From: a virus
IMG/VR virus record: IMGVR_UViG_3300037054_000044
Span: 21,206 to 85,205 of that record
Reading direction: 5' to 3' (one strand)
Length of the DNA stretch: 64,000 nt
This document shows, piece by piece, positions 41,363-42,778 of this stretch (the first letter of the stretch is position 1; the number at the start of each line of letters is the position of its first letter). The position numbers were made by a program, and so were the translations under genes. The notes below the pieces were generated by a model, which saw only the letters and a program-made list of their open reading frames with translations, searched no databases and had not been told where the DNA came from.

Positions 41363-41833
41363 TCAGTTTTTAATCCACCCAACACCTTTGCATTGTGGGC
41401 ATTGCTTTCCTGTTACTTTTTCTGGGCGCTCCCAGACTCCTTCAGTCTCATCACTTTCCCACTCTTGATAATCGGAAAACTCTAAAGGTGTCCTTGGAGG
41501 GAACCCTTTAACCCAGCCCTTTACTGGTTTGAAGTTTGGGTCTGTGTTGTCGTACTCTTTTGGGTATGCAGGGGTGTACTCTTTGGTTATAGGCGAAACT
41601 GTTTCGCCTCTGCTGTGATTACCTCCATCGAGCATATACTGCACTGCACGTATAGAGCGTCCTAAATGTTTTTCACAAAACTCAGTTTTGGTTTTGCATC
41701 CTCGTATTGTTTCTTGTGGTTGAAGTTTTTCAAACTCTTTCCACAGGTTTTTGATGTCTGTTTTGTGTGCTGCAAGTTTAGCGAACGCTGCTACCACTTT
41801 CTCTGCTAAGGCTTCTCTTTTTTTCTGGTCCAC
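41363..41833 (-). CDS. Hypothetical protein (possible HTH)
   Basis: FCEKHLGRSIRAVQYML; start uncertain, overlaps 3' end of the mom-like gene. Confidence 0.5.
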   Translation of the reverse strand: MDQKKREALAEKVVAAFAKLAAHKTDIKNLWKEFEKLQPQETIRGCKTKTEFCEKHLGRSIRAVQYMLDGGNHSRGETVSPITKEYTPAYPKEYDNTDPNFKPVKGWVKGFPPRTPLEFSDYQEWESDETEGVWERPEKVTGKQCPQCKGVGWIKN

Positions 41834-42686
41834 CTTCACCTCGTGGTATCTCGTAGTACTCCATACCCTCGAACAAATCTTTAATATGGAGAATTTTTCC
41901 TTCTTCCTTTTCAAGTGTAGCTGCTCCGCTGGCAATAGCCGCTCGCAATCTAACTGACAAAGAAGTTAAATACTCAGGAGTTTTAATAACGTACACCAAT
42001 CGCCCCGTTGCTCGTTCTGTCCAGCATATAGCCCTAGGTTTTTCAAGGGAGACTGCTGTTTTCCAATCATGCAGTACTTTAGGGTCTAATTCACTTTCAG
42101 AGCGTACTCGGAAGTTTTGGTACTGATCCAAGTTGCGTATAGGAAGACGCCTGCCCTTCTTAAAAGTTTTACCATCTACGGTGAAGTCTTTTTGCATGAT
42201 AGCGGCTCTAGTGCTTCCAGCCTCTTTGACCAGATGAAAACCGCTAGCACAGTAGATTAGCCCTGTATGTTTACCGTCTGGGTGCTCAGGTCGTTTTTGA
42301 TTGGGGTCAGCATAGGATATTACTCTTTCTACTCCCAAAGTAGCTAGTTTTTGAAGCATTCTCCCTAAGAGGAAACTTTCGCTGTTCTTTGGTAACTCAT
42401 CCAGTAGCACTAGCCGTCGCAACTCAACTGCAATAACACCCGGACGAGTCTCTTGTTTGGAAGCAGAGTATTCTCCGTATTTTCTTTCTGTTTGAGTCTG
42501 TCCGGGCATTCCAAAAATGGCTGCTCCCACTTGTTTTTGAAAGTCATCTTTTAGAACCACCTCAAAAGACATGAAAGGCGTTATGCCTTTTACAGAGTGG
42601 GAGTAATGGTGCTCCTCTACAAACTTCCTGATGTCTCCCATGGAAGTGCAAGGGCGTATCCATAGGTTTTCTAGTTCAACAGTCAC
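41778..42686 (-). CDS. mom: Mom-family (GNAT-fold) DNA adenine modification enzyme
   Basis: HHYS, GAAIFG, ELRRL....PKNSESFLL, VISYADP, HTGLIY.ASGF motifs. Confidence 0.8.
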   Translation of the reverse strand: MTVELENLWIRPCTSMGDIRKFVEEHHYSHSVKGITPFMSFEVVLKDDFQKQVGAAIFGMPGQTQTERKYGEYSASKQETRPGVIAVELRRLVLLDELPKNSESFLLGRMLQKLATLGVERVISYADPNQKRPEHPDGKHTGLIYCASGFHLVKEAGSTRAAIMQKDFTVDGKTFKKGRRLPIRNLDQYQNFRVRSESELDPKVLHDWKTAVSLEKPRAICWTERATGRLVYVIKTPEYLTSLSVRLRAAIASGAATLEKEEGKILHIKDLFEGMEYYEIPRGEGGPEKKRSLSRESGSSVR

Positions 42687-42706
42687 GTTTTTCCTTTCTT
42701 TGAAAA

Positions 42707-42778
42707 TGGAGCGGGGTGGTCGGTTCGATACGCCATCTCCTGACGGGTAGTCAGGTGTCCTGCTTAGACGAACCCCGC
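42707..42778 (-). tRNA. Atypical tRNA-Gly(ACC)
   Basis: GCGGGGT/ACCCCGC-T-CCA acceptor; CCTGA/TCAGG anticodon stem with loop CTACCCG; short D loop; distorted T arm. Confidence 0.8.

Follow-up and report, generated by a model that had tools for sequence, protein, structure and literature searches.

A deformed tRNA-Gly-like element linked to phage mom genes is probably a glycine carrier for the Mom DNA modification enzyme

The window, i.e., the whole 64,000-nt stretch of DNA analyzed, belongs to the 85-kb contig of a phage from peat soil. On its minus strand lie a 72-nt tRNA-Gly-like element (42707–42778) with a cloverleaf fold, U73 and an encoded CCA, and a Mom-family gene of 302 aa (41778–42686), whose GTG start codon begins 20 nt past the 3′-end (UCCA) of the element. 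The earlier note on this DNA had placed a 72-nt tRNA gene 20 nt upstream of a Mom ORF on the same strand, and these coordinates bear it out. The two features are separated by a 20-nt A/U-rich spacer (42687–42706, minus strand) with an SD-like AAGGA motif 6 nt before the GTG. Element and mom sit in the contig interior, amid DNA-metabolism genes, and no second such element is present in the 85-kb contig.

The assignment of the 302-aa ORF to the Mom family, also made in that note, was upheld by profile comparison. The ORF matched Pfam PF25680 (Mom) with an E value of 9.2e-16 and 58.5 bits (cut-off 27.1) over residues 20–157, and PHROG 1384 ("Mom-like DNA modification protein") with an E value of 1.9e-25. 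The GNAT core occupies ∼residues 20–157, the Pfam match ends at position 133 of the 202 profile positions, and the C-terminal half (∼140 aa), outside the coverage of the Pfam profile, is kept within the subfamily. The family is characterized by a GNAT fold with an HTH-like insertion on which activity depends. Conserved N-termini among the homologues support GTG as the start codon. The active site of Mu Mom is described as H58, Y59, R111, S124, D149, R151 and Y159 (PMC13219725). In a profile alignment to Mu Mom (PDB 8bv8; chain numbering offset +9, checked against the residue list of PMC13219725), six of these seven residues were identical in the window Mom: H58, Y59, R111, S124, D149 and Y159 correspond to H27, Y28, R91, S104, D127 and Y145, all conserved among Mom homologues. 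Mu R151 aligns to N129, with an invariant arginine, R132, three residues further. The window protein thus shares the enzyme family (PF25680) with Mu Mom, but differs from it in its length of 302 aa and in the C-terminal half that extends beyond the Pfam profile. A blastn search with the 2.3-kb region gave no match among 50,697 phage records, nor did a single-protein scan of viral contigs or an alignment scan of genome contigs, and a second alignment (A2) against viral contigs returned only two contigs that had already been found.

The features previously ascribed to the element (the stems, the GlyRS identity set, CCA, the missing D-loop GG and GTTC, the bulged T stem, A34 and a pyrimidine at 37) are all readable in the sequence. 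The acceptor stem has seven perfect pairs, including G1-C72, C2-G71 and G3-C70. The D arm carries a 5-nt loop, AAGCA, without GG (no G18 G19), and the variable region is 4 nt. The anticodon arm has a 5-bp stem with ACC/CCC within a loop that can be read as 7 nt (A34 C35 C36 C37), or as 5 nt if C32 and G38 pair. The T arm is not a regular 5-bp stem; it has 4 pairs, a bulged A in the 3′ strand and an 8-nt loop, and the T loop region, UAUCGAAC, lacks both GTTC and T54-Ψ55-C56. The glycine identity set described for bacteria, namely G1-C72, C2-G71, U73, C35, C36 and G10-Y25 (PMC9976931), is complete in the window element. The cloverleaf is the minimum free energy (MFE) fold, at −27.7 kcal/mol with a z score of −2.64; of 200 shuffles, 3 were as stable, a modest result when taken alone. 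That the element is more than a chance fold follows from its homologues, which occupy the corresponding position in related loci, and from their covariation. ARAGORN did not call the element in the window, and the Rfam tRNA model RF00005 returned nothing at E ≤ 10 in the 7 kb around it. Within the group, the window's version is the most degenerate, with D-loop GG and TTC both missing. In the contigs of one metatranscriptome run, coverage extended over 41541–42130 and 42827–43268, with the element outside these intervals. In one DNA run, contigs of related strains end at 42702–42707, and the summed depth was high over 42686–42762.

A sigma-70-type promoter-like site, TTGACT-18 nt-TATAAT, with 11 of 12 consensus matches, is located at 42785–42814 on the minus strand. 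Its −10 hexamer ends 6 nt ahead of G1, and the transcript is therefore predicted to start at or beside G1. A promoter scan of 2.4 kb gave two sites when 2.2 were expected from shuffles, so it is the position of the site, not the count, that is significant. A similar promoter in the same register was present at 9 of 28 distinct mom-linked elements vs. 5 of 92 canonical tRNA-Gly controls. A perfect 12-bp inverted repeat (42787–42825; arms at 42787–42798 and 42814–42825, 15-nt spacer) shares sequence with the −35 and −10 hexamers and with the stop codon of the ORF upstream. Exact copies of its arm in the 85-kb contig are confined to these two, and the repeat is a possible operator. No terminator-like site was found between the element and mom, and the 6 nt past CCA are 82% A+T (137/168, manual tally) over 28 distinct elements. 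A Com-like regulator was also considered; the candidate, a 47-aa zinc-ribbon ORF at 43542–43685, was rejected because it matches only a PHROG of unknown function.

The earlier note had looked to a recurrence of aberrant tRNA-Gly with mom homologues, and such recurrence was found. A homologous element is present at eight of nine distinct loci of the window's Mom subfamily. Among viral matches, a pattern derived from the elements retrieved 21 distinct aberrant elements, 12 of them beside mom, and 40 distinct canonical tRNA-Gly genes, none of them beside mom (Fisher p = 1.7e-7, relatedness ignored). When covariance model R1 was applied to 80 protein-selected Mom loci, all 17 matches were at the 5′-end of the mom ORF and on the same strand, and the 10 linked ORFs tested were all Pfam Mom. 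R1 scored 47.5–84 bits with its training sequences (58.5 bits for the window element, a training sequence and hence not an independent score), 69.9–80.1 bits with the matches outside the training set in the protein-selected loci, and 33–42 bits with canonical phage tRNAs. Two further elements outside the training set, L002 and L006, were recovered at 35 and 28.6 bits.

The element is present in 17 of the 80 sampled Mom loci (12 of 64 distinct upstream contexts); that it would accompany only roughly one in five of the Mom genes sampled had not been foreseen in the earlier note. In five records with Mom and no adjacent element, an aberrant element elsewhere was not found; these records contained only canonical tRNA-Gly(UCC) or tRNA-Met genes (33–42 bits). 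Seven Mom homologues (P0004, P0015, P0016, P0019, P0020, P0023 and P0024) have N-terminal extensions that resemble a translated T arm and acceptor end, which hints at an element in these genes as well.

Aberrant elements were also found in records without Mom. A second class (L097, L113, L177, L101 and L047), which has the same D loop (AAGCA) and T loop (TATCGA) as the window element, resides in records with no Pfam Mom, three of the five being virus records at least 90% complete, and the records of L133, L042 and L114 likewise have no Mom. The flanking ORFs of second-class elements that were tested gave no informative Pfam family. Aberrant tRNA-Gly-like RNAs are therefore not exclusive to Mom, and these records speak for a carrier or decoy outside Mom glycylation, e.g., a sponge against tRNA-targeting defenses or a donor for another enzyme, with a secondary linkage to mom. 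We regard this explanation as improbable. In the Mom loci every one of the 17 model matches abuts a same-strand mom, no other gene was consistently linked to the element in the loci read, and the link to mom persists over Mom clades. In a Mom tree the element is present in 33 of 106 rows and its distribution requires 9 changes, compared with a shuffled mean of 27.7, so that its presence is clustered. This quick LG+G4 tree, which gave long-branch warnings, was used only to assess that clustering, and it excludes L255–L260 (identical to L021) and A4-HMM-matching rows with an ORF <100 aa or an envelope <90 aa.

An alignment of 21 elements revealed what is kept and what varies. Pairs 1-72, 2-71 and 3-70, U73, CCA and G10 are invariant, and acceptor pairs 4–7 vary. 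In this alignment 95.2% of the cells are paired, vs. 49–59% with the partners slid; seven pairs change on both sides, and the covariation score was reached by none of 500 shuffles. In MFE folds, 19 of the 21 elements have an anticodon loop of 4, 5 or 6 nt and one has a loop of 11 nt; the remaining element is unfolded there. A CC lies inside the loop of all 20 foldable anticodon hairpins, despite completely different stems; the long element of the L006 type has no recognizable anticodon loop. The distance from G53 to the 3′-end is 25 nt in 11 of 12 mom-linked viral elements and 24 nt in 83 of 94 canonical tRNA-Gly genes, which means that the T-stem 3′ strand is longer by one nucleotide. In 19 of the 21 aligned elements, as read by eye, this additional base is A, in the same column in 17 and one column 5′ in two. 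The binding of EF-Tu is described as dominated by three T-stem pairs (PMC3239215). The window element fits the hallmarks of the group: the GCG...CGC-UCCA acceptor, the extra T-stem nucleotide, an odd anticodon loop with CC and a location at the 5′-end of mom.

The degeneracy of the window's version, which lacks D-loop GG and TTC, would suit a decaying tRNA pseudogene or a functionless attachment-site remnant. We consider this highly improbable. The element is kept with compensatory changes although the Moms are just 23–46% identical to the A4 first sequence; it lies in the contig interior among DNA-metabolism genes and has its own near-consensus promoter; and a whole cloverleaf is retained, more than a 3′ half. 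An attachment-site remnant was specifically rejected, since the element is internal, complete and promoter-driven.

The elements appear to descend from tRNA-Gly, and the same 5′/3′ pattern matches 94 distinct canonical tRNA-Gly genes overall. Such descent would also suit a tRNA-Gly of the ordinary decoding kind, though unusual in form, that supports translation in the host, and one of the nine elements searched, L004, scores above the Rfam tRNA cut-off (35.2 vs. 29 bits). This alternative is nevertheless hard to credit: ARAGORN and Rfam both missed the window element, 4–6-nt anticodon loops prevail and the T stem has an extra nucleotide. Canonical phage tRNAs are phage-borne too, derive from tRNA-Gly(UCC)-like genes and share the 5′/3′ pattern, but they are called by ARAGORN, occur in tRNA clusters, stay within the 33–42-bit range of R1 and were beside mom in 0 of 40 distinct cases.

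The position of the element relative to the mom reading frame was not anticipated by the earlier note: in most relatives the element lies in the mom ORF, whose ribosome-binding site and start codon it provides. Of 28 distinct linked cases, 21 have the element within the ORF. The mom start codon is at element position 14–16 in 14 of the 28, with an SD-like motif ahead of it in 13 of these 14, and seven further ORFs already begin ahead of the element. In the window, unlike in most relatives, element and reading frame are separate. In 22 of 28 linked elements the Mom domain starts −13 to +27 nt from CCA, which leaves no room for another start. Element length is 73, 76, 79 or 103 nt, all 1 modulo 3, in 22 of 28 cases (canonical tRNA-Gly genes in this class: 33 of 94), a bias consistent with a reading frame under selection. 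In L295, a GTG replaces ATG as the D-loop start, and thus the start codon is retained.

With the element inside the ORF, excision of a carrier would behead the mRNA, and a role in cis becomes plausible. The element would then be a tRNA mimic only, the leader and initiation region of the mom mRNA, and never released or charged; its fold would hide the SD-like GGAG of the acceptor 5′ strand, and binding of Mom or GlyRS may limit or time the production of a toxic enzyme. The start codons with their SD-like motifs, the ORFs that begin upstream, the lack of space for another start, the length bias and the retained start of L295 all favor such a role. Mu mom is tightly controlled at translation, which is a further point for it. 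tRNA mimics that are read by tRNA-binding proteins are known in longer transcripts, as in the thrS operator and the 3′ tRNA-like structures of plant viruses. These resemble the present element in having a tRNA-shaped fold within a longer coding transcript, but they are 5′ operators without an acceptor end or are 3′-terminal in RNA genomes, whereas the window element spans the whole tRNA shape from the acceptor stem to CCA and stands at the head of a gene in a DNA phage.

We nonetheless consider a purely cis-acting mimic unlikely. The window, L001, L032 and L337 have a mom with its own SD and start codon past the element, and in L003 an ORF of about 470 nt intervenes between element and mom; at these loci the element is not the initiation region of mom, yet it is conserved. 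A masking hairpin needs no U73, no CCA, no T-loop-like motif and no CC kept in the loop while the stems turn over. Finally, an ATG or GTG at positions 14–16 is already present in 37 of 94 canonical tRNA-Gly genes, and in 29 of these 37 no stop codon interrupts the frame before the 3′-end. A start codon is thus common in canonical tRNA-Gly, and the embedding of the element may be a cheap exaptation.

Two known systems bear on what the element might do. Mu Mom is described as moving glycine from Gly-tRNA-Gly onto the N6 of adenine (Silva et al., Nat Commun 2026, PMC13219725), so that the tRNA-Gly donor that the earlier note had named for Mom is in print for Mu. According to the same paper, Mu Mom requires Gly-tRNA-Gly, the three E. 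coli tRNA-Gly isoacceptors are all accepted and Gly-tRNA-Ala is rejected, and its authors suggest that the acceptor end is what Mu Mom reads (PMC13219725). The conserved active-site residues are consistent with the same presumed chemistry here, in which Mom would pass the glycyl group carried at the 3′-end of tRNA-Gly on to the adenine N6 of double-stranded DNA. Mu, however, draws on the ordinary host tRNA-Gly pool and has no tRNA of its own, whereas here a deformed tRNA-Gly-like gene heads mom. Because Mu Mom is active with ordinary host tRNA-Gly, a private carrier is unnecessary for catalysis. The main text of PMC13219725 does not mention a tRNA-like or phage-encoded tRNA, and no description of a Mom-linked tRNA was found in the literature passages searched.

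The second system is that of staphylococci, whose non-proteogenic tRNA-Gly, cited in the earlier note for similar losses, is as described there. In S. aureus these tRNAs are reported to bind EF-Tu poorly and to lack the T-loop TTC, and FmhB prefers them (PMC7826273). The staphylococcal species are further described as charged by the normal GlyRS, binding poorly to the ribosome and missing G19 (PMC7826273). The likeness is that in S. aureus and S. epidermidis the Gly-tRNA pool is partitioned, with dedicated tRNAs that feed FmhB, FemA and FemB and that a GNAT-fold aminoacyl-transferase prefers. The window element shares with them the absence of TTC and of D-loop GG and an irregular T stem, which are correlates in sequence only. 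The staphylococcal tRNAs differ, as described, in being cellular, specific to staphylococci, free-standing, of standard cloverleaf length and used with a peptidoglycan precursor as acceptor; the present elements are viral, have an extra T-stem nucleotide and short anticodon loops, are often inside the enzyme's ORF, and have DNA as presumed acceptor. The GNAT toxin TacT is reported to pick Gly-tRNA-Gly through U73 and G71 (PMC9976931). Both determinants are invariant in the 21 aligned elements; TacT differs in that it acetylates the charged glycine, which blocks translation, and has no dedicated tRNA.

Taken together, we favor, as probable though well short of secure, the interpretation that the element is a non-decoding phage descendant of tRNA-Gly, co-transcribed with mom and dedicated to carrying glycine for Mom, a role that the earlier note had proposed. 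Judging from the sequence signals, the near-consensus promoter would start transcription at about G1 and place element and mom on one transcript, the 5′ part of which would fold like a tRNA; a cut in the A/U-rich tract past CCA would free the 3′-end. Host glycyl-tRNA synthetase could then charge the element through G1-C72, C2-G71, U73 and the two loop C's, although C35 and C36 may be harder for this enzyme to recognize in anticodon loops of 4–6 nt. By analogy with the staphylococcal non-proteogenic tRNA-Gly, the extra T-stem nucleotide and the odd anticodon loop would exclude the element from EF-Tu and the ribosome; in the window element, the lost D-loop GG and T-loop TTC would add to that exclusion. 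Mom would finally put the glycyl on N6 of adenine in phage DNA, where a rearrangement would yield carbamoylmethyl-adenine, a step established for Mu with host tRNA-Gly and presumed here. In most relatives, one transcript would give the enzyme if translated and the carrier if cut. We go further only tentatively, and with our judgment leaning somewhat against it, to the idea that Mom and carrier form a self-contained DNA-glycylation cassette on one transcript, in which the choice between translation and processing fixes their ratio, and the conserved additional T-stem nucleotide and short anticodon loop would keep the carrier apart from EF-Tu and the ribosome and might let Mom recognize it specifically.

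If the carrier interpretation is true, (i) this would be the first virus-encoded tRNA that feeds a DNA-modifying enzyme and whose job is not translation; (ii) it would be only the second dedicated non-proteogenic tRNA-Gly, after that of the staphylococcal cell-wall system; (iii) it would explain how activated glycine is supplied for a genome-wide anti-restriction modification without competition with EF-Tu; and (iv) tRNA-dependent DNA hypermodification could be traced in metagenomes by a sequence marker, namely an aberrant tRNA-Gly-like element whose T stem holds one additional nucleotide. A tRNA embedded in the reading frame of the enzyme is an unusual double use of one RNA. A charged tRNA taken up by neither EF-Tu nor the ribosome would be of practical interest as an orthogonal carrier, and, should the cassette idea hold, viruses would possess a natural orthogonal pair of aminoacyl-tRNA and transferase.

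The 72-nt tRNA-Gly-like sequence quoted in the earlier note was present at window positions 42707-42778 (minus strand), and the GTG of the Mom ORF lies 20 nt past its CCA. The predicted fold is a cloverleaf (-27.7 kcal/mol, z -2.64) with a perfect 7-bp acceptor stem followed by U73 and an encoded CCA, a D arm with a 5-nt loop, an anticodon arm of five stem pairs with ACC/CCC in the loop, and a T arm of four pairs with one bulged A. The defects that the note had claimed, namely the loss of the D-loop GG and of GTTC and the bulged T stem, were readable in the sequence, and the T arm has no TTC. 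ARAGORN made no call for this element, and the Rfam tRNA model returned nothing at E <= 10. A sigma-70-type promoter-like site (TTGACT-18-TATAAT, 11/12) ends 6 nt before G1 of the element, and the stretch from the element to mom has no terminator-like site. Both promoter hexamers, together with the stop codon of the ORF upstream, are overlapped by a perfect 12-bp inverted repeat (arms 42787-42798 and 42814-42825, 15-nt spacer) that is unique in the contig and may be an operator. In the permafrost DNA metagenome run X16, contigs diverge from the window exactly at the element 3' end (42702-42707), and the summed depth over the element (42686-42762) is several times the flank depth, a pattern that may stem from relatives of this element in other phages of higher abundance.

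The source virus contig (85,205 bases) was found in peat and permafrost metagenomes. A profile search bore out the claimed family of the 302-aa ORF (41778-42686, minus strand), which matched Pfam PF25680 (Mom) with 58.5 bits at a cut-off of 27.1, and also PHROG 1384, 'Mom-like DNA modification protein'; its GTG start is backed by conserved homologue N-termini. The subfamily profile aligned with 8bv8, a solved chain of Mu Mom, and Mu residues were mapped with this alignment and the residue list of PMC13219725 (chain index offset 9, checked on W48, H58 and Y59). Mu H58, Y59, R111, S124, D149 and Y159 correspond to window H27, Y28, R91, S104, D127 and Y145, all invariant or nearly so across the subfamily; Mu R151 falls opposite N129, with an invariant R132 close by. 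The neighbours of mom are DNA-metabolism genes, including a helicase and several HNH endonucleases. A 40-aa ORF (41228-41350, minus strand) that resembles the N-terminal part of a helicase and has a Walker-A-like GxGK comes right before an HNH endonuclease ORF (40695-41318), followed by a complete helicase gene (38912-40681, minus strand), an arrangement that may be the trace of a homing-endonuclease insertion. The window also carries a permuted tmRNA gene (46437-46850, minus strand; ARAGORN tmRNA*, tag peptide ANENIVVPKAKAMGAAAGC; Rfam tmRNA_permuted, 75.9 bits with a threshold of 47), and tRNA-Trp(CCA) (24852-24927, plus strand) is the sole canonical tRNA of the 85-kb contig.

A protein search yielded 34 Mom homologues, whose locus DNA was obtained through alignment scans. 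Upstream DNA of 100 nt or more was available for nine distinct subfamily loci (L005 and L009, which are cut off, were left out), and a homologous element (5' GCGG ... 3' CGC-UCCA) was present in eight of them. The exception, L010, has no element; the first stretch of its mom homologue ORF (3007-3030) reads ATG ATG and then resembles an element 3' end plus the codons that normally come next, possibly the remains of an element since lost. Four subfamily elements received an ARAGORN call, either 'tRNA-???' or a tRNA with an odd anticodon; the only one accepted by the Rfam tRNA model was that of L004. No description of a Mom-linked tRNA was found in the literature searched, supplements aside, and the element is not represented by any family in Rfam 15.

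A sequence pattern derived from seven elements, scanned over two collections, gave at least 119 and at least 120 stretches. Among the matches listed for the viral set, a same-strand mom ORF shared the locus with none of 87 canonical tRNA-Gly (ARAGORN), 10/18 stretches lacking an ARAGORN call and 4/6 'tRNA-???' stretches. After identical elements were removed and two cut-off loci extended, 12 of 21 distinct aberrant elements and 0 of 40 canonical ones were mom-linked (viral set, among matches listed; Fisher p = 1.7e-7, which ignores relatedness), as had been predicted. All ten linked ORFs tested were Pfam Mom, as was that in an Acidobacteriota MAG.

For the reverse test, 448 relatives of Mom were found in viral contigs, and the best 80 were searched with R1, a covariance model for the mom-linked element (E <= 0.01). 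Sixteen of the 17 matches end 1-25 nt upstream of the mom match, and the remaining one heads the second gene of a tandem mom pair. The element was found in 12/64 distinct upstream contexts from these 80. The element is thus specific to mom without being universal. On a quick Mom tree the element occurs in 33/106 rows with at least 9 changes (shuffled mean 27.7); it is co-inherited with mom inside clades, with repeated gain or loss. Locus L295 (1486-2806) has two tandem Mom genes, the first without an element and the second starting at a GTG within its element's D loop. Two Mom genes, one with an element and one without, are also present in the Acidobacteriota MAG from which L204 comes. In L013 the element's opening 11 nt recur ~90 nt downstream of the CCA, directly before the Mom domain (about 3001-3011). 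Upstream of the L008 element, a stretch noticed by eye (about 2905-2925) may resemble the promoter core of an SP6-type single-subunit RNA polymerase.

Across 21 aligned elements, pairs 1-72, 2-71 and 3-70, U73, CCA and G10 are invariant, and acceptor pairs 4-7 vary. Paired cells made up 95.2%, compared with 49-59% with slid partners, and two-sided changes occur at seven pairs. The proposed glycyl-tRNA synthetase marks were recovered: G1-C72, C2-G71 and U73 throughout the alignment, with ACC/CCC in the anticodon loop of the window element. CC is kept in the loop of 20/20 foldable anticodon hairpins despite completely different stems (minimum free energy loops of 4 nt, n = 5; 5 nt, n = 7; 6 nt, n = 7; 11 nt, n = 1; one unfolded). 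In nearly all elements the T-stem 3' strand has one nucleotide too many (CCG-A-CC), and among the matches listed the distance from G53 to the 3' end is 25 nt in 11/12 mom-linked viral elements vs. 24 nt in 83/94 canonical tRNA-Gly. Several T loops read TGC for TTC, like staphylococcal non-proteogenic tRNA-Gly (PMC7826273, excerpt). According to the portion of PMC9976931 consulted, the bacterial glycine identity set comprises the invariant positions of the elements, and the GNAT toxin TacT reads U73 and G71 on Gly-tRNA-Gly.

The Mom domain starts -13 to +27 nt from the CCA in 22/28 distinct linked cases. In 14/28 no start codon is usable except one in the D loop, at element position 14-16 (ATG in 13/14, GTG in L295); in 13 of these 14, a Shine-Dalgarno-like motif is provided by GGAG in the 5' strand of the acceptor stem. 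In 7/28 the reading frame opens a short way 5' of the element; a separate start 3' of it is clear in the window, L001, L003, L032 and L337 and probable in L007, and L006 is ambiguous. Such embedding favours the main rival explanation, a purely cis-acting tRNA mimic that controls mom translation; the free-standing elements of the window and of L003 (where another ORF intervenes before mom) speak against it, as does the retention of CC, U73 and CCA. Element length is 1 modulo 3 in 22/28 cases vs. 33/94 canonical tRNA-Gly among the matches listed, which fits a frame constraint. Among the same matches, 37/94 canonical tRNA-Gly have ATG or GTG at this D-loop position, with an open frame in 29/37; therefore the overlap may have evolved easily. 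A strong promoter with the -10 hexamer ending 6-9 nt before G1 precedes 9/28 elements and 5/92 controls.

GC-rich viral contigs and an alphaproteobacterial MAG yielded aberrant tRNA-Gly-like elements of a second class: L097 (3098-3170, minus strand), L113 (10603-10675, plus), L177 (1969-2041, plus), and further members in L101, L221, L047 and L231. The first three share the AAGCA D loop and TATCGA T loop of the window element. In L113, L177, L101 and L221 the element forms the in-frame 5' end of a short conserved ORF (about 100 aa), and L097, L113, L177 and L221 additionally encode a Cys-rich small protein. No Pfam Mom match was found in the five records searched (L097, L113, L177, L101 and L047; three are virus records at least 90% complete), and their flanking ORFs gave nothing informative against Pfam among those tested.

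These data suggest that (i) at the level of sequence, the element is a tRNA-Gly descendant that keeps exactly the charging marks and acceptor end, carries conserved changes at the EF-Tu and decoding parts, and travels with mom; and (ii) a private, non-translating glycine carrier for Mom is the best explanation. We infer that the element would be charged with glycine, excluded from EF-Tu and used by Mom. The donor role given in the earlier note holds for Mu Mom, which takes glycine from Gly-tRNA-Gly, accepts all three isoacceptors, rejects Gly-tRNA-Ala and probably reads the acceptor end (PMC13219725, excerpt). Against a carrier, Mu does without a private tRNA, no element accompanies four fifths of the sampled mom genes (best 80 of 448), and the second class occurs in phage records without Mom. 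The staphylococcal precedent named at the outset was confirmed: the proposed carrier would follow the logic established for FmhB and its non-proteogenic tRNA-Gly (PMC7826273, excerpt). A carrier role and a cis role may coexist.
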